Below, one piece after another: positions 7,358 to 37,859 of a stretch of DNA of 64,000 bases. Origin of the DNA: Candidatus Alloclostridium intestinigallinarum (GTDB lineage: Bacteria; Bacillota; Clostridia; Christensenellales; UBA3700); the NCBI GenBank assembly GCA_904393845.1, contig CAJFNB010000001.1, positions 16,341 through 80,340 of the forward strand, in the 5' to 3' direction. The notes beneath the pieces are model-generated. The model did not search any database. It was not told where the DNA came from and saw nothing but the letters and a program-made list of their open reading frames with translations. The first letter of the stretch is position 1. The number at the start of each line of letters is the position of its first letter. Made by a program: the position numbers and the translations under genes.

Positions 7358-9483
7358 TCTTCCGCCTTCTTTTTCGCCTTTTTACCGGCGGATTTTTCCG
7401 CTTTCTTCACTTCTTTTTTATCCGCTTTACCCGCCTTTTTCTCCGCACTCTTGCTCTTATCCGCCTTTCTGCCGCCCGCGGGCTGTTCCGCCGCCACGGG
7501 CTTGCTTCCTATCACGCCCTGCGCCGCGCCTTCGCCCGAAGCCACTATCTTGCCCGTGCCGCTTATGGCGCGCAGATATGACTTGTCGTGGTTGAACGTG
7601 GGAACGAGCACTTTAAGCTGTTCCACGACCGCTTCTTTATCGTTGGTGGCGCATATGTCGTGCATCTTTTGCAGCTGTTCCATAAGCCAGGGCTTGTCTA
7701 TCGTCACCTGTCTGCCTATGAATATCTTTTCGTTGGGCGTTTTCTGCAACCCTTCTTCCTTCATAAGCAGTTCTTCAAACAGCTTCTCGCCGGGGCGCAG
7801 TCCCGTGAATTTTATCTCTATATCCTTATACGGCGTGTAACCCATCATGGTGATAAGGTTTTCCGCGAGCGTAAGTATCTTGACAGGCTCGCCCATGTTC
7901 AGAATGAATATCTCGCCGCCCTTTGCAAACGTGCCCGCCTGCAATACCAGGCTGACAGCTTCCGGTATGGTCATGAAATAGCGTATTATATCGGGGTGCG
8001 TCACGGTGACCGGTCCGCCGTTTTTAATCTGCTCCCTGAACAGCGGAATTACCGAGCCGTTTGAACCTAGCACGTTGCCGAAGCGCACCGCGGCAAACTC
8101 CGTCTTGCTGCCCGACTGCGCCATCATCTGCACTATCTCCTCGCAGCAGCGCTTTGTCGCGCCCATGACGTTAGTGGGATTTACCGCCTTATCCGTGGAT
8201 ATCATGACGAACTTTTCCACTCCGTGTTTGTCCGCCATCTGCGCCACGTTCAGCGTGCCGAATATATTGTTCTTGCACGCTTCCTCCGGATTGGTTTCCA
8301 TAAGCGGAACGTGTTTGTGCGCCGCCGCGTGGAAAACAATCTTCGGGCGGTGTTCCATAAACAGCTCGTCCATCTTATCCCTGTCCGTAACGGAAGCTAT
8401 CTCTATCCTTATGGGATAGTCGGCGCCGTACGTACGCAGTATCTCCTGCTGTATTTCATACGCCGAGTTTTCGTAAACGTCCACTATCACGACTTTTGCG
8501 GGCTTATACTTGACTATCTGTCTGACAAGTTCCGAACCTATCGAACCGCCGCCGCCCGTGATCATACACACCTTGCCCTCTATATACGCCGCAACGCCCT
8601 TATCCGTAAAGGCTATCTGCGGCCTTCCCAGCAAGTCGCCGATATTTATGTCGCGTATCTGGCTGACCATATCGGTGGTGCCCACAAGTTCGCTGATATA
8701 GGGCAGTACCTTTACCTGGCACCCCGTGGACATACACGTCGCCAGCATACTCTTGCGCGCCTGCGCGCTTATCGAAGGTATTGCGAATATTATAGTGGAT
8801 ATGGAATATTTCGTTGCCAGGCGCGGTATTTCCTGCGTGGAACCGACTATCGGCACGTTGTCTATCGTTCTGCCCTGCTTTTCCAGGTCGTCGTCCACGA
8901 GACAGACGGGAATGTAAATACTGTCCTTGCGGCTGAGTTCCTCTACCACCGTACTGCCCGTACTGCCCGCGCCCACTATCATGGTACGCTTGCGCTCCGC
9001 AGGTTTTATCCTGGGAGTCCAGTACGAATACAGCATTTCGTATATCAGGTGCATAACCGCAACCGACATTGACGTGGAAAACGCCATGACGATATACACG
9101 GGAAATCCGCGGTATACGTCGCCCACGATAAATTCGTGCGACGACACGAAGTGGGCGAGCTGGTCCACGCCCGTGAACAGCAGCGTGCCGCATATGCAGG
9201 CGAGCACTATGCGCATATATTCCTTTATGCGCGCAAAGCGCCACACTACCTTGAATATTTTGAACAGTACGAAAAACAAAAAGAAGCAGACAACCACGAC
9301 GGGCGTGCTTATCAGAACGGAATTCACGTATTCGCTGCCGTACTCGTCCACTACGTAGGACTGGGTAAGCAGTGCGGTGGCGAAAAACACCGCCGCAACC
9401 ATAAACATATCAGCCGCCGCGAGTATCCACTCGCGCAGCGTGCGCATGGAATAAGACTTTAAGTCTATCTTCTTTTTGCCCAT
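7354..9483 (-). CDS. membrane-bound nucleotide-sugar 4,6-dehydratase (CapD/PglF/WbpM family)
   Basis: N-terminal TM helices, two Rossmann motifs (VGAGSTGS; ITGGGGSIGSEL), GATKRCCE, FGNVLGSNGSV. Unusual K/A-rich ~70-aa C-terminal tail. Confidence 0.85.
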   Translation of the reverse strand: MGKKKIDLKSYSMRTLREWILAAADMFMVAAVFFATALLTQSYVVDEYGSEYVNSVLISTPVVVVCFFLFFVLFKIFKVVWRFARIKEYMRIVLACICGTLLFTGVDQLAHFVSSHEFIVGDVYRGFPVYIVMAFSTSMSVAVMHLIYEMLYSYWTPRIKPAERKRTMIVGAGSTGSTVVEELSRKDSIYIPVCLVDDDLEKQGRTIDNVPIVGSTQEIPRLATKYSISTIIFAIPSISAQARKSMLATCMSTGCQVKVLPYISELVGTTDMVSQIRDINIGDLLGRPQIAFTDKGVAAYIEGKVCMITGGGGSIGSELVRQIVKYKPAKVVIVDVYENSAYEIQQEILRTYGADYPIRIEIASVTDRDKMDELFMEHRPKIVFHAAAHKHVPLMETNPEEACKNNIFGTLNVAQMADKHGVEKFVMISTDKAVNPTNVMGATKRCCEEIVQMMAQSGSKTEFAAVRFGNVLGSNGSVIPLFREQIKNGGPVTVTHPDIIRYFMTIPEAVSLVLQAGTFAKGGEIFILNMGEPVKILTLAENLITMMGYTPYKDIEIKFTGLRPGEKLFEELLMKEEGLQKTPNEKIFIGRQVTIDKPWLMEQLQKMHDICATNDKEAVVEQLKVLVPTFNHDKSYLRAISGTGKIVASGEGAAQGVIGSKPVAAEQPAGGRKADKSKSAEKKAGKADKKEVKKAEKSAGKKAKKKAEE

Positions 9484-17866: not shown

Positions 17867-18999
17867 AAAAGACGATAGTAAACGTACGCCCCTTTTCCGA
17901 GGGCAAAATCAAATCCAAATGCAGCATAGTCGTAGAGGACGGCAGAATAGTTTCCGTCGGCAACATGATTATGGGCGACGTCATAGACGGAGGCGGAATG
18001 ATAGCCTGCGCGGGATACATCGACATCCACACCCACGGCGGCTGGGGCAAGGACTGCATGGAACCCACGTACGAGGCCATAGATACCGTGGCGAAATACC
18101 ATCTGTCCACGGGCATTACCTCGTTCTGCCCCACGACCATGACCGCGGACATTGCGGACGTAGAAGCCGCGCTTGCCAATATGCGCTCGTACAAGACAAA
18201 CGGCGCGCGCCTTGCCGGAGCGCATCTGGAAGGTCCCTTCCTTTCTCCGAAAGCCGCGGGGGCGCACCCTTTGGACAAACTGCTTAATCCGGATAAAAAC
18301 AACACCGCGTTCATAACGCGCAACCGCGATATGGTCCGCCGAATAACCGTTGCCCCCGACCTTGCCGGAGCGCCCTTTGTAACCGCGCTGTGCTCAAGCC
18401 TGGGCATTCAGGTTTCCATAGGTCACGACGGCAGTATCGACGACGAAATATACGCCTGCATAGAAGCGGGCGCAAGCAGCGTCACCCATATGGGGAACTG
18501 CACTTCCCACGCTTCACGCCGCTACCCTTCGCCCAAAAAACACCTGGGGCTTTTCGAAACGGCGCTTGCGGATGACAGGCTGGTATGCGAAGTCATCGCA
18601 GACGACCGCCACGTCCCCGATCCCCTGTTCAAAATCTTCTACCGCCTCAAAGGCAAGGACGGAATATGCTTTGTTTCCGACTCTCTTTCCGTAGCCGGAA
18701 TGAAGGACGGCGACTACTTCCTGGGAAGCGGCGAGAGCGCGCAGGCGATACGCATAGAAGACGGCGTTGCCGTGCTCCCCGACAAGCACACCTACGCCGG
18801 CTCGGTCACGCCCGTATCCAGAATGGTTTCGCGCCTGTACGAACAGGGCTATCCCGCGGAAGACCTTCTGACGATGGCTACCCTTACCCCCGCAAAACTT
18901 ACGGGACTTACGGACAGAGGAGATATAAGACCCGGACTTCTGGCGGATATAAATCTTCTCGACGAGCGTCTGAACGTGGTAAAAACGCTGATGCTGTAA
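17863..18999 (+). CDS. nagA: N-acetylglucosamine-6-phosphate deacetylase
   Basis: DIHTHGGWG, GAHLEGPFLS, THMGN motifs. Start set at ATG 17863 (MKKTIVNV), which overlaps the GH20 stop as ATGA. Confidence 0.9.
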   Translation: MKKTIVNVRPFSEGKIKSKCSIVVEDGRIVSVGNMIMGDVIDGGGMIACAGYIDIHTHGGWGKDCMEPTYEAIDTVAKYHLSTGITSFCPTTMTADIADVEAALANMRSYKTNGARLAGAHLEGPFLSPKAAGAHPLDKLLNPDKNNTAFITRNRDMVRRITVAPDLAGAPFVTALCSSLGIQVSIGHDGSIDDEIYACIEAGASSVTHMGNCTSHASRRYPSPKKHLGLFETALADDRLVCEVIADDRHVPDPLFKIFYRLKGKDGICFVSDSLSVAGMKDGDYFLGSGESAQAIRIEDGVAVLPDKHTYAGSVTPVSRMVSRLYEQGYPAEDLLTMATLTPAKLTGLTDRGDIRPGLLADINLLDERLNVVKTLML

Positions 19000-19085
19000 T
19001 TAGGCGCCGAATGAAAGTGCCGTGCGATAAAGCATTAATCAAAGCGAAAAAACCATTCGCACGGCACTTTGCGCCTACGCTTTAA

Positions 19086-19142
19086 GGGGAAACCCGTTCA
19101 TTCGCAAGCATGCTTGCTTGAGAACAGGTTTCCCCTTCTTTT
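19086..19142 (+). terminator. long-hairpin rho-independent terminator after nagA
   Basis: GGGGAAACC (19086-19094) pairs with GGTTTCCCC (19127-19135). Inner palindrome GCAAGCATGCTTGC. Followed by TTCTTTTC. Confidence 0.7.
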
Positions 19143-19380
19143 CGCGCAAAGTATATTTAAGCAAACTTGTCTTTTGCGCGAAAATTCACCCTTTCCGATT
19201 AAAAACTTGCACGGCAAGTTTTAGCGGTTACGCTTGGCAAAATGCGATTTTGCCGCGCTTTATTTACAATATAAAGCATTGCGGAGATAATGTAATAAAT
19301 AATACTTTTGTTACTTCAAGGCTTAATCAGGGGTGGAGCGTCCTACGCTCCCGCTCGCAAAAGCGCGGTTTCCATAGGTA

Positions 19381-19420
19381 ACTCACTTGTAGTCATTTGT
19401 GGTCATCTATGGTCATTTAT
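19381..19420 (+). repeat. four tandem 10-bp phased repeats (arm-type-site-like)
   Basis: actcacttgt / agtcatttgt / ggtcatctat / ggtcatttat, head to tail. Confidence 0.8.
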
Positions 19421-19462
19421 AGCTAATATTTCAGCCGTTTTTAGTATATGTAAACCCCCCTT

Positions 19463-19525
19463 TGCCACTTACAATCACTTGCAGACATCTGTAATCATTT
19501 GTGCGGCGTGGACATTTCGTGGACA
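19463..19525 (+). repeat. second 10-bp phased repeat block plus CGTGGACA direct repeat
   Basis: ccacttacaa / tcacttgcag / acatctgtaa / tcatttgtgc (19463-19502), then CGTGGACA at 19507-19514 and 19518-19525 (11-bp spacing). Confidence 0.7.
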
Positions 19526-19584
19526 CTCGTTGACTAATATCGAGAGGGTGAGCGTTTGATTGCAAAACCATACAAAAAAATTTT

Positions 19585-19614
19585 TTGAAAAACTTTTAAT
19601 AACTGCCATATATT
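19585..19614 (+). promoter_or_regulatory. putative promoter of the first prophage gene
   Basis: TTGAAA (19585-19590), 17-18 nt spacer, ATATAT/TATATT (19608-19614). Confidence 0.4.
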
Positions 19615-19668
19615 GTCAGAATAGGAAAAGTATCATACAGATAGATAATAACAGAGAGGTGAAGACAT

Positions 19669-20637
19669 ATGTTGACAGCACTTTTAATCGTAGTATTGGT
19701 TTTACCGTTACTCTTGCTTGCTGATAAAATTAAGAGAAACGAAAGAGAAAAACTTATCAATGACGTTAAATCCGGCCGCGGCGTAAAAAGAGGTAAGTCA
19801 GACCCCGTTTTGCAAAAGAAAATCCGGGATGAATTTCTAGCCGAAACTGCCCCGTATCTTGATATCGTTGACCCGAAGGCGAACCTCGGGCTTGTAATTA
19901 AACAGCTTAGAGATAAATATGAACCGGGGGTGGAGCACAAAGTTATCCCAGAAGATACTTATATAAATTATCAACGCATAGAAAATTATCTTGCCGTAGT
20001 TCGATATTCCTGGCACAAGGCTCACATACCTTATACAACCGTGCTTAATTGCCGACTAAGTGAAGTTGAAACCAAGGAAGAAATTATTTCCCTTTTAAAA
20101 AAATATTCGAAACTACCTATTGAGCCATTTGAGGTGACTTTTGATGATATGGAAAACAAACATAAGTGGTTCATGGAAAGATATAATAAAAAGTGTAAAG
20201 ATTACTGGCTCCGTAAATATAGTAACGAACGTAGGGTTATAGACGCGGAACCGACCCTTTTCTTTGCTGGAGAAGACATATATGAAGTTCTTCCATTCAA
20301 ATATTATACAGACGGTATGATACCGTCGGAAATAGTCAGCGAACAATGTTTCGCAAAGACAAGGGAAGAGTTTGAGCAATTCCTCATAGATAATCCTGAA
20401 GTCTGGTGCAGAATTAAAAAGGTCACGGAATTTTTTGAGGACTGCCCCGTGCTCCCTGCTCTTCTCCCCCTTTGCCTTCACAGAAAATACCGCACGTTAA
20501 GACAAAGAATGTACGATTCCTTAAGCTATTTTAATGAAAGCGGTGCTTTGGCTTCGAGCTACATGAAGCCTAGATTGGCTAAGTACGGTATAACAGAGCT
20601 TGTTTATATACCTAATGACCTCTATAATACTATATAA
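19669..20637 (+). CDS. membrane-anchored hypothetical protein (prophage-end moron candidate)
   Basis: RBS GAGAGGTG; N-terminal TM helix (LLIVVLVLPLLLL); no recognisable domain; followed by a hairpin. Confidence 0.6.
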   Translation: MLTALLIVVLVLPLLLLADKIKRNEREKLINDVKSGRGVKRGKSDPVLQKKIRDEFLAETAPYLDIVDPKANLGLVIKQLRDKYEPGVEHKVIPEDTYINYQRIENYLAVVRYSWHKAHIPYTTVLNCRLSEVETKEEIISLLKKYSKLPIEPFEVTFDDMENKHKWFMERYNKKCKDYWLRKYSNERRVIDAEPTLFFAGEDIYEVLPFKYYTDGMIPSEIVSEQCFAKTREEFEQFLIDNPEVWCRIKKVTEFFEDCPVLPALLPLCLHRKYRTLRQRMYDSLSYFNESGALASSYMKPRLAKYGITELVYIPNDLYNTI

Positions 20638-20991: not shown

Positions 20992-21582
20992 ATGAAAATT
21001 GCGGCGAAAATACGCAATTCTTTCCAATTAGAAATTATGAAAATAGATATTTATAAAACCGAAAACAAGTACGGTATCATTTACGCAGATCCACCGTGGC
21101 GTTATGACAACCCAAAAAACAACGACCCGGCGATGGGAGGGATAACATACCCTACCATGTCTCTTGAAGACATATGCAATATGCCGATACATAACATCGC
21201 CTCTAAAAACTGCATTTTGTTTTTATGGGCAACAATGCCAAAATTACGCGAGGCGTTAGAAGTAATTAAAGCGTGGGGATTCAATTATAAAACCTGCGCT
21301 TTTTGCTGGGTAAAACAAAACCCTTCGGGAAATGGAATTTATAGTGGTCTTGGCCACTGGACAAACGGCAACGCAGAGTTGTGTTTACTTGCGACGAAAG
21401 GAGCGCCAAAAAGAGTTTCGAAAAACGTTAAGCAAATCGTCCTTGCCCCACGGGGACGGCACAGTGCCAAGCCTCCCGAAGTCCGTAACAGAATAGTCCA
21501 ACTCATTGGTGATATATCTAGAATCGAATTATTTGCCAGAGAAGAACCAGAAGGTTGGGATTGTTTTGGCAATGAAATATAG
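20992..21582 (+). CDS. MT-A70 family N6-adenine DNA methyltransferase
   Basis: IIYADPPWRY (DPPW catalytic motif), LFLWAT, GHWTNGNAELCLLATKG. The start may instead be ATG 21037. Confidence 0.85.
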   Translation: MKIAAKIRNSFQLEIMKIDIYKTENKYGIIYADPPWRYDNPKNNDPAMGGITYPTMSLEDICNMPIHNIASKNCILFLWATMPKLREALEVIKAWGFNYKTCAFCWVKQNPSGNGIYSGLGHWTNGNAELCLLATKGAPKRVSKNVKQIVLAPRGRHSAKPPEVRNRIVQLIGDISRIELFAREEPEGWDCFGNEI

Positions 21583-21607: not shown

Positions 21608-22186
21608 ATGAACGAGGCAATAAGAAACCATCACACGATTGAATTTTTATCAGATAAACCGATAGCACTCGAACAAATATTTTATTTAGTCGAAAAAGAT
21701 GAAGCTCAGTTTTTTTATGGCACATGCGAAGTGTGTGGTGGGAAAAACAAAGTAGAACTCAATGGGTATGAATTCCCATGTCCAAAGTGCCACGGTCAAA
21801 GTTCCAGCAATATAATTGTGCTGCGAGTTCCCAGATATACTGTTCATAGGTTTCGGGTATCTGGTATTAGCGAGAACAAGACTGGGGCTTACTGGAAGCC
21901 TTCCTGTGGTTTAAGCACTGAAATTGAGATAACATTTTCTCGCCCCCGCCCTCGCGTTGGAGCATCGTGGAATGAATATGATAAAAAATACGTCTTAAAA
22001 TCTTCTAACCATTCAAAAATCATATTAACTCAATTTGGACATGAATACCATAGTGAATATAAAGCCGCCGTAGCAGAAGCGGATAAATTAAATGAGGAGC
22101 AACAAGCTATCGTTCAAAAGTACAACGCTGACTTCAACACAAATTTCATATTTGAGAAACCAAAATACGACAGTAAATTTCAATAA
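21608..22186 (+). CDS. zinc-ribbon hypothetical protein
   Basis: CEVCGG...CPKCHG pair of CxxC knuckles. Lies between the two methyltransferase genes. Confidence 0.5.
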   Translation: MNEAIRNHHTIEFLSDKPIALEQIFYLVEKDEAQFFYGTCEVCGGKNKVELNGYEFPCPKCHGQSSSNIIVLRVPRYTVHRFRVSGISENKTGAYWKPSCGLSTEIEITFSRPRPRVGASWNEYDKKYVLKSSNHSKIILTQFGHEYHSEYKAAVAEADKLNEEQQAIVQKYNADFNTNFIFEKPKYDSKFQ

Positions 22187-22208
22187 AAATTTCTATTTAT
22201 GAGGTGCT

Positions 22209-23363
22209 ATGATTAAAATCCTTCTAGGAGGGAGTCCCTGCACCTTTTGGTCTATTGCCAGAGCTGGTAGAGAAACTCATCCTAGTGGTGTTGGATGGGA
22301 ATTATTTGAAAACTATTTAATAGCAAAAGAAAAATTTCAGCCTGATTTTTTTATCTACGAGAACAATCAAAAAATCCATTCATCGATAGTTGAAGAAATT
22401 CGCCGACTTTTAGGATGCGGCACAGATTCCAACACCCATTGTATTGAAATAGATTCGGCTCTTGTTTCTGCTCAAAAACGACGCAGGTTTTATATACATA
22501 ATTGTGGCAACGTTGAACAGCCCGCGGATCGAGGCATCCTTTTTCAAGACATACTTGATAATGGAATAGTAGAACGGGACAAGGCTTATTGTCTAACGTG
22601 CCATGAGGGCAATACACGGGACTACTTTTTAAAACGACAAACAAATTTGGTGTTCATTCCGATTTACGATGAACTAGCAGCAAACAAATCGAAAAATATC
22701 TCCAATGACAAATATTATCGCATATATTTCGCAGACGGCAAGGCGGCAACGATGTGTGCAGGAGACATACAATCCGTGTTGGATAATGGATTACATCTAC
22801 CCCTTTTTTCTGGCACATATTCTTTTGAAACCAGCGGAAGCATTAAACCTGCAAATCCGAAACTACCCTCTCCTATATATGAAATAAGAAATGGCGAAAT
22901 ACTGATAAGAGGAAGAAAATATCCTGTGAATCTGAAAGACGGTTTGTACACTATCAGGAAACTTTCGAGCGCCGAGTGTTGCCGTCTACAAACACTACCG
23001 GAAGATTACTGTCGAAGTGTTTCAAACACCCAAGCCTATCGTTGCATTGGAAATGGGTGGACTGCTGAAGTGATAATCCATATTCTTTCTTACGCGCTGC
23101 GAAACATCCCAAAAAACGAAGAAGTTGTTGTCTTATCTCTGTATGATGGTATAGGAACTGGCAGATACTGTTTGAATAAAATGGGGTTTACAAATGTGAA
23201 GTATTACGCATATGAAATTGATAAACACGCCATCAAAGTCGCAACAAGCAACTTTTCTGACATCATAGAGTGCGGAGATGCGTTTCAAGTAAGAGAACAA
23301 TTGTTTTCAGAAACATTTCCGCCGAACCACGAAATTGACTTGAAAACAAATAGAAGGAGATAA
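22209..23363 (+). CDS. DNA (cytosine-5)-methyltransferase, circularly permuted motif order
   Basis: Motif IV GGSPCTFWS at residues 7-15. Then ENN (VI), QKRRRF (VIII), RKLSSAECCRLQTLPEDY (IX), GNGW (X). Motifs I-III (LSLYDGIGTG, YAYEID, GDAFQV) lie at the C-terminus. Confidence 0.8.
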   Translation: MIKILLGGSPCTFWSIARAGRETHPSGVGWELFENYLIAKEKFQPDFFIYENNQKIHSSIVEEIRRLLGCGTDSNTHCIEIDSALVSAQKRRRFYIHNCGNVEQPADRGILFQDILDNGIVERDKAYCLTCHEGNTRDYFLKRQTNLVFIPIYDELAANKSKNISNDKYYRIYFADGKAATMCAGDIQSVLDNGLHLPLFSGTYSFETSGSIKPANPKLPSPIYEIRNGEILIRGRKYPVNLKDGLYTIRKLSSAECCRLQTLPEDYCRSVSNTQAYRCIGNGWTAEVIIHILSYALRNIPKNEEVVVLSLYDGIGTGRYCLNKMGFTNVKYYAYEIDKHAIKVATSNFSDIIECGDAFQVREQLFSETFPPNHEIDLKTNRRR

Positions 23364-23366
23364 AAA

Positions 23367-23714
23367 ATGAAATATAAAAGATTGACAGATAGAGTGATTG
23401 CTGAAATGTTAAGAAACACAGAGGGAGAAAGTTGGGATAGCGACAACATCGAAGCACAATGCTATATTCGCCTTGCCGAGTTGGAAGACAAAATCGAGAG
23501 CGGAGAGATTATCTCCGTGATACAAAGCGAGCAAGACGAACAAGAGATAGCTTACTTCGTAAAACATAATGCGGCAGTTAGAAAACAAGCCGTGAAAGAA
23601 TTTTCGGATAAAATCCTATCTGCTAGCAAAATAACATTTTGTGCTTTCACAGATGCAAGAATGGAACTATCTTTGGCTGAATACAAACAGTTAATAAAGG
23701 AGGCGGAACAATGA
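23367..23714 (+). CDS. hypothetical protein
   Basis: RBS AAGGAGA; the RLAELEDKIESG helix is typical of small phage early proteins. Confidence 0.55.
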   Translation: MKYKRLTDRVIAEMLRNTEGESWDSDNIEAQCYIRLAELEDKIESGEIISVIQSEQDEQEIAYFVKHNAAVRKQAVKEFSDKILSASKITFCAFTDARMELSLAEYKQLIKEAEQ

Positions 23715-24049
23715 GAAACAGGAATTGCCCGGATAAGGACGCGTGCTGGGACTATAAAGCGAGTAATTGCGAGGGTTGCGCGATAGGAGAAAAGATTGCT
23801 CGCCTCGTACGTCAAAACAAAAAACTCAAAGCCGAAAACGCCAACCTTCGCCACCGCGGGGAAGTCGCGGAAAGGGCGTTAGAAAACAAATGCAAAAATG
23901 TATGTAGTGCTTGTGGAATGCATCAAGCAGCGAATTGTAAGGGAAAGGAATTTTGCCAACAGGAAGCATTTAAGCGTTCTTTGGAACAAGCTGAAAAAGA
24001 ACTCTCGGAGGAGAAGAACAATGATTCACGAAGAGCTGGAATGGTGTGA
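23711..24049 (+). CDS. small Cys-rich coiled-coil protein (paralog family member)
   Basis: RBS AGGAGG; KKLKAENANLRHRGEVAERAL; C-terminal AEKELSEEK. Confidence 0.55.
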   Translation: MRNRNCPDKDACWDYKASNCEGCAIGEKIARLVRQNKKLKAENANLRHRGEVAERALENKCKNVCSACGMHQAANCKGKEFCQQEAFKRSLEQAEKELSEEKNNDSRRAGMV

Positions 24050-29242: not shown

Positions 29243-31207
29243 ATCTTTGTAGAAAAGGAACAGATACAAAAAGCTAAAGCGAAGCTCGGAGATAGGAACG
29301 CCGACATAATAGCAGAGCTTCTGCATGTGGAAAAATGGGATGAAAAAAATAAAAAAGGATGCTGTCCGTGGCATTCGGAAGACACTCCGAGTTTTATATA
29401 TAACCCCAAAACTTATAGTATGCATTGTTTCGGATGCGCACGCAATACTGACATCATTGATGCATACATGCACACAGGTTTAACCTATATAGAAGCGGTA
29501 CAAAAGCTCTTCGAAGAAGCAAAAATACAATACACCTTCGGCGAAGTGGGGGTGAAAACCAAACATCAATATCATTATCCTACCCTCGACGAGTTGAACG
29601 AAAAAAGCCACGCGAGTGCTTATCTTGAAAAGAGAAAAATTTCCAGGGAAACTATCGACAAGCTTGATATCCGAGAAGATTCTCATGGTAATATCTCCTT
29701 CAATTATTACGACACAAACGATGTCCTTTGTATGGTTAAATATCGCCCTTCTCATAAAATTCCGAAAGGGTCGGGAGAAATAAAAAGCTGGTGCCAAAAA
29801 GGAGCGGATACAACTCCCCTTTTGTATAATATGAACCGCGTGAATATTACGCAACCTTTATTAATTACAGAAGGGGAACTCGATGCCGCTGCCGCAATTG
29901 AAGCTGGATACACAAACGCCGTTTCGGTTCCTTTTGGTGCGAACAACTACTCCTGGATAGAGGAAAATTTCGATTGGCTTGAACAATTCGATGAGATAAT
30001 AATTTGCTCGGACAACGACGAACCGGGAATAAAAATGCAAAAGGAATGTATTTTCAGACTTGGTTCGTGGCGAACGAAAGTAGTCGATGTGCCAAGGATA
30101 CATACCGACCCCGTCACAGGGAAAACCATCCCGATGAAAGACTTGAACCATGTTCTGTACTACGAAGGGAAAGATGCAGTTATAAACCTCATACATAATG
30201 CGAAAGACTCTCCCGTGGATAGCGTTTCAGATTTTTCAGACATTTCAAACATTGATCTGGATGAAATTGATGGAGTAAAAACCGGCATAGAAGAAATCGA
30301 CAGCAAGCTCATGAAACTCTTTTATGGCTCATTTACGATTATAACCGGGGTCAACGGTTCTGGTAAAAGTAGTTTTATATCTCAATTGATATGCAATTCC
30401 TTAGACGATGGCAAAAACGCATTTCTCTATTCAGGGGAACTACCTAATTTTCAGTCAAAAAACTGGATAAATTATATATTCTCCGGACAACGTAATTTGA
30501 GGGAATACAACATAAGCGGCGCCCAGTATTGGAAAGTAACACCCGAAGCGCAAGCAAAAATCAACGAATTTTATAAAGGGAAACTGTTTATCTACAAAGA
30601 CGGGTATGACCACCGCGTAGATTCTATTTTACAGGCAATGGAAGACACAACTCGAAAATACGGTTGCAAGTTCCATCTTATAGATAATCTTACATCGGTC
30701 AATCTCGGGGCAAATGACCAAAATAAGTTCCAAAAGCAAGAAGAATTCGTCACAAGGTTAATTGATTTTGCCAAAAAATTCAATGTTGCCGTAGTGCTTG
30801 TGGTTCACCCCCACAAGCTGGACACAATGCGAAGATTGACAAAAATGGACATACAAGGTATTTCCGCAATCATAGACCTGGCGCATAGAATTATCAGTCT
30901 ATATCGCGTTACAGCGGCTGATAAGAAAGGTGAACCCAGTAAAAAAGGAAATGGCTGGTACAAAGAGCCTATCAAATACGACGTGCTCTGTGACATCCTC
31001 AAGGATAGAATGCTGGGCTTCGAAGGCAGTACGACGGGGTTATATTACGATCGTCCCTCAAGACGTTTTTTTGTCGATGAAAAAACTCTCGACAAGAAAT
31101 ATAAGTGGGACGATGCCGAATACGACTCCCCGCTCCCATTCCCACCGCCCCAACTTAACACACCTGCCGATGATGAAATTTACGGTACGATAAAGGAGGC
31201 TACATGA
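29243..31207 (+). CDS. bifunctional DNA primase / DnaB-like helicase (T7 gp4-like)
   Basis: CHC2 Zn finger CCPWHSEDTPSF...CFGC; TOPRIM EGELDA...DNDEPG; Walker A GVNGSGKSS. The 5' end is uncertain: ATC 29243 behind AGGAGG, or GTG 29327. Confidence 0.85.
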   Translation: MFVEKEQIQKAKAKLGDRNADIIAELLHVEKWDEKNKKGCCPWHSEDTPSFIYNPKTYSMHCFGCARNTDIIDAYMHTGLTYIEAVQKLFEEAKIQYTFGEVGVKTKHQYHYPTLDELNEKSHASAYLEKRKISRETIDKLDIREDSHGNISFNYYDTNDVLCMVKYRPSHKIPKGSGEIKSWCQKGADTTPLLYNMNRVNITQPLLITEGELDAAAAIEAGYTNAVSVPFGANNYSWIEENFDWLEQFDEIIICSDNDEPGIKMQKECIFRLGSWRTKVVDVPRIHTDPVTGKTIPMKDLNHVLYYEGKDAVINLIHNAKDSPVDSVSDFSDISNIDLDEIDGVKTGIEEIDSKLMKLFYGSFTIITGVNGSGKSSFISQLICNSLDDGKNAFLYSGELPNFQSKNWINYIFSGQRNLREYNISGAQYWKVTPEAQAKINEFYKGKLFIYKDGYDHRVDSILQAMEDTTRKYGCKFHLIDNLTSVNLGANDQNKFQKQEEFVTRLIDFAKKFNVAVVLVVHPHKLDTMRRLTKMDIQGISAIIDLAHRIISLYRVTAADKKGEPSKKGNGWYKEPIKYDVLCDILKDRMLGFEGSTTGLYYDRPSRRFFVDEKTLDKKYKWDDAEYDSPLPFPPPQLNTPADDEIYGTIKEAT

Positions 31208-34200
31208 GAATTTTCCAAAACTATCATAAGCATTCTATGTATACAAACGTCAGAATTTCCGATTCGGCGGTTACCCCGGAAGCATATGCTTTGCGCGCAA
31301 AAGAACTTGGGCATACCATTGTTTCTTCTTGTGAGCACGGATGGCAAGGTAATTACTTCGAGACTATCGAAATAGCAAAAAAATACGGTCTTAAACCATT
31401 GATTGGCGCAGAGGCCTATTGGGTTAAAGACCGTTTTGAAAAAGACAGAAGCAACTGCCATATGTTTATCGGAGCAAAAAACGAACGTGGAAGGCAGGCT
31501 CTGAACGACGTGCTCTCCGAAGCAAATCTCACAGGCTTCTACGGGCAACCGAGGCTTGACATCCCTTTAATTCTCTCTCTTCCAAAAGACGATGTCATAG
31601 TCACGTCAGCCTGTATAGCCTATTGGAGATATGAAGACATAGAACAGATAACGGCTGAGTTTGCCAACCACTTCGGCAAAAACTTTTTCTTAGAGGTTCA
31701 ATACCACAACACCCCGTCCCAAAGAGAATTAAATCAACGAATCTTGAAACTTCATAACGAGCTGAAAATCCCGTTGATTATGGGGTGCGACAGCCATTAC
31801 ATATACCCCGAACATGGACAAACCAGAAGTGATTTTCTAGTTTCTAAGGGCTTGTCATATCCAGATGAAAAAGGATGGTTTTTAGACTACCCCGATGGTG
31901 ATACGGCATATCAACGTTTCGCCACCCAATGCGTATTAAGTGATAGCGAAATATGCGACGCGATGGACAACACAAACGTGTTTTTGGATGTCGAAGAATA
32001 TGATACGCCTATCTTCAATTCCGAAATAAAAATGCCGTCGCTCTACCCTAACGCCACACAAGGTGAAAAGAACGAAATATATAAACAGCTGGTGTGGCAA
32101 GGATGGAAAGAGTACAGAAAACAAGTTCTTGAAGATAGGTGGGCTCATTATGAAGACGATATTAAAAAGGAAATGCAAATCGTCTTCGATACCAACATGG
32201 CCGACTACTTTATCAATAACTATTATATAATACGCAAAGGTAAGGAAAACGGGGGCTGGCTTACCAAGTCAGGCAGGGGGTCGGCAGTATCTTTTATAAC
32301 AAATATGTTGCTAGGGTTTACCGAAGTAGATCGTATTGCGGCAAAAACCCACATGTATCCAGAGCGTTTTATGAGCACTACCCGTATATTGGAAAGTGGT
32401 TCGCTCCCCGACATAGACTTCAACTGCGCCCCCGTCGAGCCTTTCGCCCGTGCGCAAAAAGAAGTTCTCGGGGACGACCACTCGTATCCGATGATAGCGT
32501 ATGGAACAATGCAGAAATCGGCGGCATGGAAATTATATGCAAAATCACAGGGAATCCCATTTGAGATAGCCAATGCCGTTTCAGAACAAATACGCAAATA
32601 CGAAAACGCAATTAAACACGCTCAGGAAGACGAAAAAGAAGCCGTTGACATTTTTGATTATATCGACAGAGAGTATCGGGACATCTACGAAAGAAGCAAA
32701 GATTATCTCGGACTTGTTACATCTTGGAGTATTGCCCCCTGCTCATATCTCCTGTATTCCGGGAGCATTCGAAAAGAAATAGGGCTCGTCAAAGTCAAGG
32801 ATAACATCTGTTGCATTATGGACGGGCATTGGGCTGAAAAATGCCACTTTCTGAAAAACGATTTGTTAAAGGTCTCGGTCGTGGACTTGATATATCGAGC
32901 CTATCACCGAATAGGTATGGAACCACCGACTGTCAACGAACTGCTAAAGATGTGCCCGCCCGACGACCCCGCGTGGGAAATTTACGAGCTTGGTTGCACC
33001 TTGGGTATCAATCAATGCGAACAGCCGGGAACATCGGCACGCGCAGGCAAATATAAGCCGAAAAACATATCGGAATTGGCCGCTTTTGTCGCGGCAATAC
33101 GCCCGGGATTCAAATCAATGTACAAAACTTTCGAAAGCAGAAAGCCGTTTGCCTATGGTGTAAAAGCGTTCGACGATTTAATACAGACGGAAGAAATGCA
33201 AAACAGCTTTATTCTTTATCAAGAGCAAGAAATGGCAGCTCTGAATTACGCCGGGCTAGATATGAGCGAATGCTACACCGCCATCAAAAACATTGCGAAA
33301 AAGCGCACGGATAAAGTCTTGGCGTACAAAGAGATGTTTGTAAACGGCGTTTCAAAAAAGTTAATGAGGGTCGAAAACAAAGACGAGAAAACCGCAATTG
33401 AACTCGCAACAACCCTGTGGACAATTATAGAAGACTCTGCCAATTACTCGTTCAATGCTTCCCACGCATACTGCGTAGCGCTCGACAGCTTGTATGGTGC
33501 GTGGATTAAGGCTCACCACCCTCTTGAGTTCTACGAAGTGATGCTTACTATCGCAGAAGAGAAAGGTGATAAAGATAAAATGAACGCCCTTAAAAACGAG
33601 GCTGAAAGTTTCTTCTCGGTAAAATTCCCGCCATTCAGATATGGACAAGACAACCGGCAAATTAAAGCCGACTCCTCCTCTAATTCGATTATTAACTCCA
33701 TATCATCCATCAAGGGGTTTAATGTCAGCGCGGGAGAAATTTTGTATAACTGTGCCCAACAACATTTTTCTTCGTTTATTGATGTATTGAGTTGGCTCAG
33801 CTCAAAAGGATTTAAAGAAGCAAAAGTCAAGCCCTTAATCCTCATAGGATATTTTCAGCAATTCGGGAACATCAACAATTTATTGTTTCTCCTGGACTCT
33901 TGGAAATTATTCAAGGAAGGCGAAGCCAAGCTTATACGAAAGGATAAAGTTAAGCACAATATCATCAACGACATTTTAAAAGAAAAATGTATGGCTGAAG
34001 CAAAGAACGGGGCTGAAAGTACGAATTACAAGGTCGCAGGGCTTTGTGAAGAATGTTTAAAAGAATTGGAAAAGCGAATCACGGAACAACCATTGCCCGC
34101 TCCCTCGGTTAAAGAACAAGTCAACAACTCCCTCGATATTTTAGGGTATGTAGATGTCGTCACCAATAACCCCGATGACAGAAAACGTTTATTGATAACC

Positions 34201-34413
34201 GATGTAACGAAAATGGAAGACAGTTCAGGCAAGACTTGGGGATACAGGATTGGGACACATAGTATTGGCACCGGCAAATCCGCAAGAGTGACTATTCGGG
34301 CTGCTAAGTTCGCGCAATCACCAGTTAAGCCAGGAGATATTCTTTACGCTACCGAGGTATATCAAAACAAAAGTGGCTATTGGTATCTTATATCTTATAG
34401 AAAAGAAATATAG
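31204..34413 (+). CDS. dnaE: DNA polymerase III alpha subunit (DnaE-type)
   Basis: 1069 aa. N-terminal PHP domain (HKHSMYTN...SSCEHG), LPDIDFNC palm motif, C-terminal OB-like region. Confidence 0.9.
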   Translation: MRIFQNYHKHSMYTNVRISDSAVTPEAYALRAKELGHTIVSSCEHGWQGNYFETIEIAKKYGLKPLIGAEAYWVKDRFEKDRSNCHMFIGAKNERGRQALNDVLSEANLTGFYGQPRLDIPLILSLPKDDVIVTSACIAYWRYEDIEQITAEFANHFGKNFFLEVQYHNTPSQRELNQRILKLHNELKIPLIMGCDSHYIYPEHGQTRSDFLVSKGLSYPDEKGWFLDYPDGDTAYQRFATQCVLSDSEICDAMDNTNVFLDVEEYDTPIFNSEIKMPSLYPNATQGEKNEIYKQLVWQGWKEYRKQVLEDRWAHYEDDIKKEMQIVFDTNMADYFINNYYIIRKGKENGGWLTKSGRGSAVSFITNMLLGFTEVDRIAAKTHMYPERFMSTTRILESGSLPDIDFNCAPVEPFARAQKEVLGDDHSYPMIAYGTMQKSAAWKLYAKSQGIPFEIANAVSEQIRKYENAIKHAQEDEKEAVDIFDYIDREYRDIYERSKDYLGLVTSWSIAPCSYLLYSGSIRKEIGLVKVKDNICCIMDGHWAEKCHFLKNDLLKVSVVDLIYRAYHRIGMEPPTVNELLKMCPPDDPAWEIYELGCTLGINQCEQPGTSARAGKYKPKNISELAAFVAAIRPGFKSMYKTFESRKPFAYGVKAFDDLIQTEEMQNSFILYQEQEMAALNYAGLDMSECYTAIKNIAKKRTDKVLAYKEMFVNGVSKKLMRVENKDEKTAIELATTLWTIIEDSANYSFNASHAYCVALDSLYGAWIKAHHPLEFYEVMLTIAEEKGDKDKMNALKNEAESFFSVKFPPFRYGQDNRQIKADSSSNSIINSISSIKGFNVSAGEILYNCAQQHFSSFIDVLSWLSSKGFKEAKVKPLILIGYFQQFGNINNLLFLLDSWKLFKEGEAKLIRKDKVKHNIINDILKEKCMAEAKNGAESTNYKVAGLCEECLKELEKRITEQPLPAPSVKEQVNNSLDILGYVDVVTNNPDDRKRLLITDVTKMEDSSGKTWGYRIGTHSIGTGKSARVTIRAAKFAQSPVKPGDILYATEVYQNKSGYWYLISYRKEI

Positions 34414-35307: not shown

Positions 35308-35473
35308 ATGTACGGTCTTAAAAGCCAAATTGGACGCCAAAGGGATTGCTTACACTGTAGAAAGCAATACTGAAGAAATGGCCAGGAGGGGGTTTGATTA
35401 TCTCCCGATGCTTGAAGTTGACGATATAGTTTACGACTTTGCCAAAGCCGTAAAATGGGTAAATGAGAGGTGA
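35273..35473 (+). CDS. nrdH: glutaredoxin-like protein NrdH
   Basis: 66 aa; CPKC redox motif at residues 10-13; sits immediately upstream of nrdD. Confidence 0.7.
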   Translation: MKVTLYTTGCPKCTVLKAKLDAKGIAYTVESNTEEMARRGFDYLPMLEVDDIVYDFAKAVKWVNER

Positions 35474-37383
35474 TTATGGAAATAAGTTTGAATTTGGACA
35501 AAGAATTTACTGATTGTATAAATGAACTCCGCGAAAAATATGGTGAAAAATTTGAGATGATGAATGGCTTTCACAACCAAAATCTTAATTTCACCGATTT
35601 TATAAATAATTTTGTCGATACTGCGACCGTAGCGGATGTCACGATTGACGCGAACGCGAACAGTAGCACTCACGACGTTCGCACATTAATGAGCGATATG
35701 GTTAAACCCCATACAAAACTACTTTCGTTCAATAAAATATTCTGCGAGACGCGGAAAAAATACGGGGTCGAAGCTGCACGAAAGTGGCTTGAAGAGGAAT
35801 GGAACGGAACGTTTTATCTGCATGACGCCCCTTCCGCAAGTTTCCTGAGTTACTGTTATGCATACGATATCCAGCAGATAGCGGAAAAGGGATTGTTCTT
35901 TATAAACCGATTCAAAACAAGCCCTCCTAAACACCTTACAACCTTCAATGACCACATTCTTGAATTTATTTCTTGGGCTGCAAACCGGACGAGCGGCGCC
36001 GTCGGGTTGCCAAGCTACCTTGTTTACAGTTTCTACTTTTGGAAGGAAGATGTAAAAAACAAGGTGTTTTTAAAAGACCCCGAATATTATCGCAGACAGT
36101 GTTTTCAAAAATTCGTATATGACCTGAACCAGCCATATCTCCGTGTGACTGAATGTGCGTTCACGAACATTACCATTATGGATAGATGCTATCTTACCGA
36201 ATTGTTCGGTGGCAAACAGTTCCCGAATGGAGAGTACATAATCGATTACATCGACGATATCATAGAACATCAGAAAGTCTTTATGGAAGTAGTATCGGAA
36301 ACTCGTGCAGACACCATGATGACATTCCCTGTTTTGACGTACAGTCTGCTGTATCAGAACGGAAAATTTGTTGACGAAGATTTTGCGCGTTGGTGCAATA
36401 AACACAATATGAAATGGTGCGACAGCAATTTTTATGTCGGAAACGACGTTACATCGCTTTCTAACTGCTGTCGCCTCGTTTCCAATACGAAAAAACTCCG
36501 TGCCTTTATCAATTCCATAGGTGGCACTTCCCTTTCGATAGGAAGCGTAAAGGTCAATACGATAAACCTGCGGCGTATAGCATTGGAAGCAAATGGTGAC
36601 CAGAACAAATATATAGAAATCCTTGGAGATAGAGTGAAAACTTGTATTAGAACGCTGGACGTGATACGTGGAATTATTTCGAGAAATATCGAAAAGGGCT
36701 TGCTTCCCAATTATAGTTACGGGCTTATTGAACTTGATAAGCAATACAACACAATCGGGATTACCGCAATGTATGAAGCACTGAACGATTTCGGACTGAT
36801 AGATACTGATGAGTTCGGGAATAAGTCGTATTCAACAAAAGGCCTTGAATTTGCAAAGCGTATTATGAACACCATAAATACCATCAAGGATGAATACGAA
36901 AATGGTTATAGCATAAATGTCGAAGCTATACCAGCCGAGCGTGCAAATGTGGTTCTCTGTAATAAAGACAACGAACTCTACCACCCCGAAAAAGAATATT
37001 TTATCTACAGCAACCAATGGATACCCCTTATGGAAAAATGCACACTGAATGAAAAAATTAAGCTCGGAGCGTTGTTGGATAAGGAGTGCGGCGGAGGACA
37101 AATTTCGCACATAAATATTCAGGGCGACTTTGCCAGCGAAGAGCAGGCTTGGGGGCTTTTAAATTACATAGCAAGTCAAGGCGTAATTTACTTCGCCTAC
37201 AATAAGAAAATCTCCGTATGTGAAAACGAACACGCGTTTTTCGGTGAAACGTGTCCTAAGTGTGGCAAACCTAAAACAGATACATATTGTAGAGTTGTCG
37301 GATTCCTCACCCCCGTCAGCAGTTGGAGTAAGGAACGAAAGAAAGAATTTGATCACCGTAAATGGTTTAAGGTGAGCGAATGA
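35470..37383 (+). CDS. nrdD: anaerobic ribonucleoside-triphosphate reductase (class III)
   Basis: 637 aa. C-terminal Zn ribbon CENEH...CPKCG and glycyl-radical loop CRVVGFLTPV. Confidence 0.9.
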   Translation: MIMEISLNLDKEFTDCINELREKYGEKFEMMNGFHNQNLNFTDFINNFVDTATVADVTIDANANSSTHDVRTLMSDMVKPHTKLLSFNKIFCETRKKYGVEAARKWLEEEWNGTFYLHDAPSASFLSYCYAYDIQQIAEKGLFFINRFKTSPPKHLTTFNDHILEFISWAANRTSGAVGLPSYLVYSFYFWKEDVKNKVFLKDPEYYRRQCFQKFVYDLNQPYLRVTECAFTNITIMDRCYLTELFGGKQFPNGEYIIDYIDDIIEHQKVFMEVVSETRADTMMTFPVLTYSLLYQNGKFVDEDFARWCNKHNMKWCDSNFYVGNDVTSLSNCCRLVSNTKKLRAFINSIGGTSLSIGSVKVNTINLRRIALEANGDQNKYIEILGDRVKTCIRTLDVIRGIISRNIEKGLLPNYSYGLIELDKQYNTIGITAMYEALNDFGLIDTDEFGNKSYSTKGLEFAKRIMNTINTIKDEYENGYSINVEAIPAERANVVLCNKDNELYHPEKEYFIYSNQWIPLMEKCTLNEKIKLGALLDKECGGGQISHINIQGDFASEEQAWGLLNYIASQGVIYFAYNKKISVCENEHAFFGETCPKCGKPKTDTYCRVVGFLTPVSSWSKERKKEFDHRKWFKVSE

Positions 37384-37859
37384 TAATCAAAGACATCCAA
37401 GACGAAACTCTTCAAGACTATAAGGATGTCGCAATGCTTATCTCTGCCCGCACCTGCGACTGGAAATGTTGCAGGGACGCGGGGTATGAGATATGCCAGA
37501 ATTCCGAAGTCGCAAGACGAAAGGATATAGACATTCCGAACGAGAATATCTGTGAAAGATACTTGTCCAACAAAGTCAGCAAGGCAATTATTTTCGGAGG
37601 TCTTGAACCGATGTTCCAGATCCTAGATATATTGGCTATCTTGGAATTGTTGAGAAACCATTACCATTGTAATGATACCGTCGTAATATATACGGGATAC
37701 GATAAATCCGAAATCAAGCCGCAGATAAGAGCCCTTTCCGAATACCCTAACGTAATAGTAAAATACGGGCGATTTATACCAAACCAGCCTACTCATTATG
37801 ATGCCGTTTTGGGGGTGTTTCTTGCAAGTCCCAACCAATGGGCAGAAAAAATTTCATAA
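37380..37859 (+). CDS. nrdG: putative class III RNR activase (NrdG-like)
   Basis: ATGA overlap with nrdD; 159 aa; Cys cluster TCDWKCCRD...CQN; GGLEP motif. The cluster spacing is atypical. Confidence 0.55.
   Translation: MIIKDIQDETLQDYKDVAMLISARTCDWKCCRDAGYEICQNSEVARRKDIDIPNENICERYLSNKVSKAIIFGGLEPMFQILDILAILELLRNHYHCNDTVVIYTGYDKSEIKPQIRALSEYPNVIVKYGRFIPNQPTHYDAVLGVFLASPNQWAEKIS

Follow-up and report, generated by a model that had tools for sequence, protein, structure and literature searches.

A clostridial prophage encodes a C5 cytosine methyltransferase with a circularly permuted motif order, broken between motifs III and IV

The order of motifs in the C5 cytosine methyltransferases (C5-MTases) is a textbook example of strict conservation. 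The plant DRM enzymes are eukaryotic proteins with N-terminal UBA domains, and their chain is broken between motifs V and VI, giving the order VI–X, I–V. DRMs are reported to be confined to plants and to go back to Dnmt3 through duplication and circular permutation (PMC3227630). Natural permuted C5-MTases also include M.BssHII, M.Alw26I, M2.Eco31I, M.Esp3I, and M2.BsaI (Slaska-Kiss et al. 2018, PMC5944983), and a REBASE-wide search in 2018 found 27 sequences in which motif X precedes motif I, all of them permuted in the variable region (Type H/J; PMC5944983). In the laboratory, designed permutants of M.MpeI and M.SssI gave ten active topological types, tandem-duplicated enzymes were also active (PMC5944983), and evolved cpM.HaeIII variants had their N-termini between motifs II and III, inside motif III, or between that motif and motif IV, which are Types B and C (Peisajovich et al. 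2006, via PMC5944983). Here, we describe a C5-MTase gene in a stretch of 64,000 nucleotides ("the window") from the genome of Candidatus Alloclostridium intestinigallinarum (GCA_904393845.1, contig CAJFNB010000001.1, positions 16,341 to 80,340), whose product starts with motif IV and ends with motifs I–III. As far as we could establish, this III/IV topology has been reported so far only for engineered or laboratory-evolved enzymes; no description of a natural III/IV permutant was found in a full-text search of an incomplete literature library.

The gene is a complete open reading frame (ORF) on the forward strand (22209..23363) and encodes 384 amino acids plus a stop codon. A ribosome-binding site, GAGGTG (22201..22206), precedes its ATG at 22209, and another ATG upstream, at 22199, is out of frame. 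The product is identical to NCBI HIY98869.1, "DNA cytosine methyltransferase [Bacillota bacterium]". Its first block, block A (residues 1–120; 22209..22568), contains strand beta4 and motif IV GGSPCTFWS with the catalytic Cys11 (residues 7–15; 22227–22253), motif VI YENN with Glu51 (residues 50–53; 22356–22367), and motif VIII SAQKRRRFY (residues 87–95; 22467–22493). A variable region, or target-recognition domain (TRD), follows at about residues 108–246 (22530..22946); its conservation is low and its length differs among family members. Block B (22947..23099) comprises motif IX, YTIRKLSSAECCRLQTLPEDY (residues 247–267), and motif X, GNGWTAEVIIHILSYAL, with its GNGW (residues 281–297). An eight-residue linker from motif X to motif I, RNIPKNEE (residues 298–305; 23100..23123), joins what would be the C- and N-termini of a canonical enzyme and leads into block C (23124..23306), the half of the fold that binds S-adenosylmethionine (SAM). 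This block consists of motif I, VVVLSLYDGIGTG, containing LSLYDGIGTG (residues 306–318), motif II KYYAYEID (residues 331–338), motif III DIIECGDAFQV (residues 351–361), and a retained III–IV linker; all of the motifs were read from the sequence. The last residues, SETFPPNHEIDLKTNRRR (residues 367–384; 23307..23360), form a C-terminal tail that comparison with the family and with a close relative shows to be non-conserved.

In other words, the motif order is IV-VI-VIII-TRD-IX-X-I-II-III and not I to X. Each block occurs once in the window and all are in the same frame. The unusual order affects the topology of the enzyme and not its inventory of fold elements. The initial annotation, made from the letters of the window, had given exactly these coordinates for the ORF and had placed the motifs as above; our reading of the sequence bears this out, far beyond what chance would give.

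In its native order, the protein matches the Pfam profile PF00145 with 76.2 bits (gathering cut-off 22; E=4e-21), with residues 2–293 reaching only profile positions 62–319. When the chain is de-permuted, by placing residues 299–384 before residues 2–298, the two native stretches become one, which spans profile positions 3–319 of 324 and scores 82.6–90.3 bits. A sequence search against the Protein Data Bank (PDB) aligned residues 302–368 with DNMT3A 5–72 and residues 4–120 with DNMT3A 78–198, two parts that are complementary, non-overlapping, and adjacent within one domain, with their order swapped. The canonical MTase of coliphage alia is divided in the same way, its residues 3–68 matching block C and its sequence from residue 66 on matching block A. 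The de-permuted protein aligns with the alia enzyme from end to end (137 bits, E=6e-42), whereas the native-order protein aligns in two separate pieces (97 and 55 bits). These three comparisons confirm the order proposed in the initial annotation, with motif IV first and motifs I–III last. It had suggested a profile alignment as a check, which the united PF00145 match now provides, and had named as fatal to the idea a pair of separate truncated domains; that reading fails because every motif is present in a single copy and the two halves meet without overlap or gap. The chain starts between motifs III and IV, ends after motif III, and has motif X joined to motif I, which is the Type C topology. 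These observations support a reading of the window protein as a circularly permuted C5-MTase in a single chain, with its break between motifs III and IV.

The residues on which catalysis and cofactor binding depend are invariant in two family alignments, of 38 and 70 sequences, with the exception of D357, which is nearly so (90% or more). The catalytic set consists of P10-C11 in motif IV, E51 in motif VI (as ENN), and Q89, R91, and R93 in motif VIII, as in PF00145, and the cofactor set of D313-G314-I315-G316-T317-G318, E336, G356, and G281-N282-G283-W284, so that the SAM-binding motifs and motif X are all represented.

We also modelled two proteins with AlphaFold2: the window protein (38-sequence alignment) and a compact relative of 348 amino acids (70-sequence alignment). 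Both models agree in a predicted local distance difference test (pLDDT) score of 85–95 in the N- and C-terminal blocks and below 50 in the variable region. Their secondary structure runs beta4, alphaD, beta5, alphaE, beta6, beta7 ... helix X, beta1, alphaA, beta2, alphaB, beta3, which is the full set of strands and helices expected for the class I methyltransferase fold in a permuted order. The predicted template modelling (pTM) score, 0.58–0.60 in both models, exceeds what either half, each under 30% of the chain, could give alone, and the halves therefore appear to be confidently placed against each other. We infer from these scores that the two halves fold into one domain in which beta1 pairs with beta4. 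A different arrangement would be a domain-swapped dimer or oligomer as the only active form, with motifs I–III of one chain completing motifs IV–X of another. The best-matching C5-MTases, of the DNMT3/DRM type, do work as dimers or tetramers according to their PDB entry descriptions, and the linker between motifs X and I is only eight residues long. However, DRM has the same X-to-I connection with a similar linker length and a collinear alignment, and the pTM just given was reached by monomer models in which both halves are confident. We regard an obligatory swap as distinctly unlikely.

How, then, does the single-chain permuted enzyme compare with its relatives? Canonical phage C5-MTases, such as those of alia (YP_009985271.1, Stephanstirmvirinae), of Vibrio phage ICP1, and of metagenomic sisters with GGSPCTYWSIAQ and ENN, are 33–45% identical to it per block. 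Like it, they occur in a phage setting and have motifs of a DNMT3-like flavour (LSLFDG..., GGSPC, GNGW), but they run from motif I to motif X, whereas the window protein starts at their beta4 and ends where their III–IV linker ends. Among solved structures, the best sequence matches are mammalian DNMT3A and DNMT3B (E about 2e-8), which have a similar LSLFDGIATG-like motif I and GGSPC motif IV; identity is about 25% over about 105–120 residues per piece, the order is canonical, and the context is another one, and this likeness is a resemblance, not membership. Plant DRM2 and tobacco DRM (PDB 4ONJ, 7L4C) have the DNMT3-like flavour and the same X-to-I junction, and 4ONJ 180–253 is collinear with residues 255–328 of the window protein in a weak match (E=4e-4 to 0.03). 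Unlike the plant enzymes, the window protein has motifs IV and VI contiguous at its N-terminus, no extra domains, and a prophage context.

The break had been predicted to lie elsewhere than in M.BssHII and plant DRM, and this is correct: it is in the variable region, where the two domains meet, in the former and between motifs V and VI in the latter, against III/IV here. Enzymes of the M.BssHII type (Type H) resemble the window MTase in being single chains with motif X ahead of motif I, presumably produced by the same route of duplication and truncation (PMC5944983), but the window MTase is broken inside its catalytic domain and does not belong to Type H. The laboratory permutants cpM.HaeIII and Type B/C cpM.MpeI and cpM.SssI are of the same topology class and are active, although artificial and usually less active than the wild type (PMC5944983). 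The family of the window protein, in contrast, is natural and abundant and evolves under purifying selection, and its clean cut has left no residue redundant or missing.

The extent of this family became apparent from homologue searches. Among 7346 matches, the best 120 all start with M-x-K-[IL]-L-[IL]-GGSPC and stop a few residues after GDAFQVR, and their lengths spread from 348 to 600 amino acids because the variable region differs. An exhaustive search of 1.84 billion representatives returned 5800 at E<=1e-3 and 543 at E<=1e-30. We assigned order classes by means of three blocks, A (IV–VIII), B (IX–X), and C (I–III): the best 150 representatives at 50% identity comprise about 97 permuted, 29 canonical (CAB), and two tandem (CABCAB) proteins, the rest being fragments. 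According to tblastn block positions, the full A-B-C order is present in 121 of 135 fetched loci (49 viral and 72 bacterial) and the canonical order in none of them. A survey of homologues, as recommended in the initial annotation, thus finds the permuted order to be common, and the window MTase is not the singular rearrangement that it had seemed to be, but a member of a large conserved family.

The bacterial records come overwhelmingly from gut Clostridia (Oscillospiraceae, Lachnospiraceae, Acutalibacteraceae, Ruminococcus, and Christensenellaceae), and cultured carriers include Butyricicoccus pullicaecorum DSM 23266, Flavonifractor sp. An82, and Acutalibacter intestini. A megablast of the MTase region against GenBank phages gave no match; truly permuted GenBank phage records, which include Phage nd4 and human faecal phage contigs, do exist, although in nd4 the gene carries no more than the label "hypothetical protein". 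PHROG 17284 (the best match, of "unknown function") and PHROG 16427 match collinearly across the X-to-I junction, and permuted members are therefore already in the databases, unrecognised as such; the family is probably under-annotated. Permuted order was also considered for the rV5-like/Stephanstirmvirinae coliphages, ICP1, and Roseobacter and Pelagibacter phages, for which tblastn reported about 95% query coverage, and was rejected when the alia and ICP1 genes translated as canonical. Because such coverage merges non-collinear pieces that map to one place, we dropped it as evidence of order.

Summed dN/dS is 0.046 for block A, 0.056 for block B, and 0.058 for block C, over up to 29 independent related-gene pairs per block, and the C-terminal I–III block is as constrained as the catalytic block, since the ratio is about equal (about 0.05). 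These values bear on the idea that the gene is a non-functional, decaying remnant, formed when the 3' part of one truncated MTase gene was fused to the 5' part of a second. Tandem MTase genes and tandem fusions do exist in the lineage, and the atypical tail of the window copy reads into the ribosome-binding site of the next gene. On the other hand, hundreds of diverse members have identical termini, the catalytic residues are all invariant, the low dN/dS extends to every block including I–III, and there is a single copy of every motif and neither overlap nor gap. A remnant is scarcely credible for the window gene, and at the level of the family it is effectively refuted.

Several further features of family members were observed. 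Phage nd4 (L003, 4001–5677) and representatives P0128, P0197, P0205, and P0212 are permuted and have a C-terminal extension of 80–190 amino acids after motif III, which is acidic and of low complexity; the extensions of nd4, P0128, and P0212 have a terminal segment in common, ...LAERRKLHIIDE..RY.CDIIALEYA.... In six canonical proteins (P0243, P0228, P0258, P0224, P0240, and P0239) and two permuted ones (P0171 and P0174), an intein interrupts the chain precisely at the motif IV catalytic cysteine (GGSP|C...VHN|CTYWS), which is the +1 extein residue; in P0171, the intein begins only about 10 residues from the N-terminus. In an uncultured Clostridia metagenome-assembled genome (L107, 2998–5769), and also in L139, two permuted MTase genes adjoin, with catalytic blocks about 90% similar and TRDs that are unlike in kind and length, which suggests stacked specificities. 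The L107 locus, which reads ABCABC, consists of two separate genes. The canonical sister in Vibrio phage ICP1_2006_E (MH310934.1; L002, 2495–3493) has an in-frame stop right after motif IV (GGFPCQA*), is annotated as a "short" and a long methyltransferase ORF, and could be a pseudogene or else an enzyme that is naturally split.

The cut site can be read from the ends of the proteins. Canonical sisters have a junction of the form GDVFxADFTxYxG-xDxLxGGSPCTYWSIAQ, and typical permuted proteins end in GDAFQVRxxDWxL* and begin with M-IKLLIGGSPC. The usual permuted C-terminus stops nine residues past GDAF, which is the canonical linker length; the N-terminus of the window protein lies six residues before motif IV, and its TRD is internal. 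The family ends together form a complete III–IV junction, and the cut was clean, just before beta4, with nothing lost or duplicated. At the other junction, the X-to-I linker (...HILNGALKDVPRDEEIVVLSMYDG) resembles a canonical C-terminus fused straight onto a canonical N-terminus; for comparison, the alia enzyme ends in ...AHILKCMEE* and begins with MKVLSLFDG.

The relatives that would be expected along such a route survive in part. All 29 canonical-order sisters carry the family hallmarks GGSPCTYWSIAQ and ENN, and the two tandem representatives are head-to-tail fusions of two canonical enzymes. One of these, P0159, is a verified single ORF of 962 amino acids from a contig of 62 kb; the two halves share 49% identity and have the same 20-residue motif IV segment and the hallmarks GGSPCTYWSIAQ and ENN, with different TRDs. 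In a neighbour-joining tree of the concatenated blocks, a single split separates the canonical and tandem proteins from the permuted ones, with one outlier. Taken together, the junctions, the tandem fusions, the X-to-I linker, and this split support a single origin by fusion of tandem genes and then truncation at both ends, as read from sequence comparison. On its contig (L146), P0159 has surroundings rich in methyltransferases, with genes for an N6_N4 MTase, another C5-MTase, a NikA-like protein, and a peptidase S26 (759–1445 and 8553–8931); this contig could represent a conjugative element instead of a phage.

Duplication followed by truncation had been proposed in the initial annotation, on the ground that the C-terminal PPNHEIDL joined to the N-terminal ILLGGSPC would recreate a normal III–IV junction. 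The route itself is better supported by the tandem fusions, the X-to-I linker, and the laboratory precedent; the signature offered for it is weak. The string is real (PPNHEIDL, residues 371–378), and its EIDL lines up with ...PWGEIDL|LLGGSPC of alia, but it is absent from the close relative L004 and from nearly all members and is not conserved in the family. We examined the idea of a relic by means of the family tails, a hidden Markov model of the canonical junction, shuffle tests, and a DNA comparison with the close relative. The window tail is a length outlier: it extends 19 residues beyond block C, where the mode is 5–7. L004 is 99.5% identical up to nucleotide 23325 and then lacks window positions 23326–23474, a 149-bp indel that takes out the MTase tail, the ribosome-binding site of the next gene, and about its first 36 codons; the edges of the indel overlap by about 5 bp, and the gene affected is 23367–23714. 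Since the homology between the window and L004 stops again after 23703, the phage early region appears to be mosaic. More distant relatives terminate in ...DDDWKIPD*, and the next gene (ATG 23367) has its ribosome-binding site, AAGGAGA, within the last codons of the window tail, AGA AGG AGA TAA. The shuffle test of the window tail against the canonical junction gave p=0.005, uncorrected for about 10 tests, and that of the P0227 tail (...WLDKLLGGDAP*) gave p=0.02; other tails were not significant. In a subgroup with P0227 and P0032, the tail "W.PP....E(W/I)LD.LLGG" resembles IDLLLGGSPC. The relic is at best suggested by these tests, and it is unproven and unnecessary, because the normal family ends already give a complete III–IV junction.

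Several observations weigh against the account developed so far. The window protein scores 65.1 bits with NCBIfam TIGR00675 (dcm superfamily) and does not reach its curated cut-off of 100.65, because the permutation splits the match into two stretches. The single domain and its beta1–beta4 pairing are taken from confidence scores and not from coordinates, and model confidence is low in the TRD and extends at this low level even to the region of motif IX. Foldseek against the PDB matched DNMT3A/B over only about 105 columns (E about 4e-5), a short coverage explained by its sequential alignment; against the PDB and BFVD, it otherwise gave long alignments with root-mean-square deviations above 14 A, such an aligner being unsuited to permuted folds. 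Among the 268 proteins and 135 loci, there are no partial intermediates of the form CABC or ABCA, and the neighbour-joining tree is rough, being built from short concatenated blocks with midpoint rooting. Motif VI reads ENN instead of the usual ENV. Finally, the activity, its 5-methylcytosine (5mC) product, the anti-restriction role, and the evolutionary route, like the single domain, are deduced and not observed.

The ENN variant, together with PCT(Y/F)WS in place of PCQxFS in motif IV, might also mean that the substrate or chemistry has changed, to RNA, another cofactor, or a different C5 adduct, and that permutation and motif variants both reflect this change. We consider this very improbable: canonical-order sisters carry the same motif variants, motifs VIII and IX flank a variable TRD of the typical kind, QxRxR is retained, and bona fide DNA MTases (DNMT3A/B, M.HaeIII, and M.HhaI) give the best matches. 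The usual C5 chemistry is expected instead. The chain would begin with beta4 and the Pro-Cys loop of motif IV, continue through motifs VI and VIII, the TRD, and motifs IX and X, and be led by the eight-residue linker to beta1–beta3 (motifs I–III), the SAM-binding half of the same domain. Cys11 would attack C6 of the flipped-out cytosine, Glu51 of ENN and Arg91/Arg93 would hold the base, and SAM, held by DGIGTG, Glu336, and Asp357, would donate the methyl group. The enzyme would methylate the phage DNA, and in a lysogen also the host DNA, to escape restriction. Its arrangement would have a single origin in a lineage of DNMT3-like phage MTases, where two canonical genes were fused head to tail and the first I–III block and the last IV–X block were subsequently lost. 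Taken as a whole, this account of a catalytically competent permuted C5-MTase with an anti-restriction role in phage and one origin by fusion and truncation seems to us highly probable.

The role is suggested by the genomic context. The C5-MTase gene is the second gene after an MT-A70 methyltransferase gene, within the early/replication module of an integrated prophage. The MT-A70-family protein (20992..21582, + strand; 196 amino acids) is of the N6-adenine type, and the gene between the two MTase genes (21608..22186, + strand) encodes a protein of 192 amino acids with a weak zinc-ribbon signature and no restriction-endonuclease signature. The trio stays together in L004, a related phage contig. 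No PADLOC model, and hence no endonuclease, matched the flanking ORFs 19669–20634, 21608–22183, 23367–23711, and 23711–24046, and the gene does not qualify as the methylase of a restriction-modification system; the sole other PADLOC match near the C5-MTase is the adjacent MT-A70 methyltransferase, and Pfam matches on three flanking ORFs are absent or weak. Downstream lie genes for HD, ERF, and PD-(D/E)XK proteins, a DnaG-DnaB primase-helicase, a Pol III alpha-type polymerase, and NrdD, and then the tail genes. The polymerase (31204–34413), a prophage replicase of 1069 amino acids, has PHP and DNA_pol3_alpha domains, and the anaerobic ribonucleotide reductase NrdD (35470–37859) is adjoined by a small 4Fe-4S protein that is probably its activase.

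On the other side, GC content drops sharply at 18800–19700 of the window, from about 0.58 in bacterial-type genes (a GH20 hexosaminidase, an amidohydrolase, sugar epimerases, and APH) to about 0.40 in the phage genes. The same junction is present in independent assemblies (GCA_019116065.1 DXCJ01000084.1 and ENA ERZ27234793), and we therefore take it for a real prophage–host boundary, across which GC content differs by an unusually large amount. Neither an integrase nor an att site was identified.

In this setting, the window protein is a real and probably active orphan phage 5mC methyltransferase, and the most likely role to be read from the sequence is 5mC marking to evade host restriction. 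An arms race of this kind fits, because the TRDs are highly variable and one locus has two adjacent permuted genes with different TRDs. The main role of an active cytosine MTase could also lie elsewhere, in the epigenetic control of prophage or host genes, or in supplying 5mC for hypermodification. Some phage C5-MTases feed 5mC to TET-like dioxygenases and glycosyltransferases (bioRxiv 10.1101/2023.12.21.572611), and a gene in an integrated prophage could act on the host chromosome. However, neither a TET/JBP dioxygenase nor a glycosyltransferase was found among the prophage genes scanned, and the early/replication module, the second orphan MTase beside it, the variable TRDs, and the paired genes form a typical anti-restriction pattern. 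Another main role is thus possible but unlikely.

By this reading, the window enzyme would be ordinary in its chemistry and role, and it is already deposited under generic names. What may be new is its family: we think it somewhat more probable than otherwise that this is the first natural C5-MTase family recognised to have its break (III/IV) within the catalytic, SAM-binding domain, that it abounds in gut-clostridial phages and prophages, that it is of single origin, and that canonical and tandem-fused "intermediate" relatives survive. If so, it would be a natural replay of the pathway of duplication, fusion, and truncation that Peisajovich and Tawfik showed in the laboratory for M.HaeIII, with a topology that the 2018 REBASE survey had not met in nature. 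A large natural family broken inside its Rossmann-like domain would mean that nature uses a topology until now only engineered, and permutants optimised by nature, with the catalytic loop at the extreme N-terminus, are possible starting points for methyltransferase tools of the split or fused type. The family may be under-counted in phage and gut methylome surveys, because the permutation halves the profile score and curated models miss members. With its canonical and tandem-fused relatives, the family would provide a natural setting in which to study the origin and fixation of permutations.

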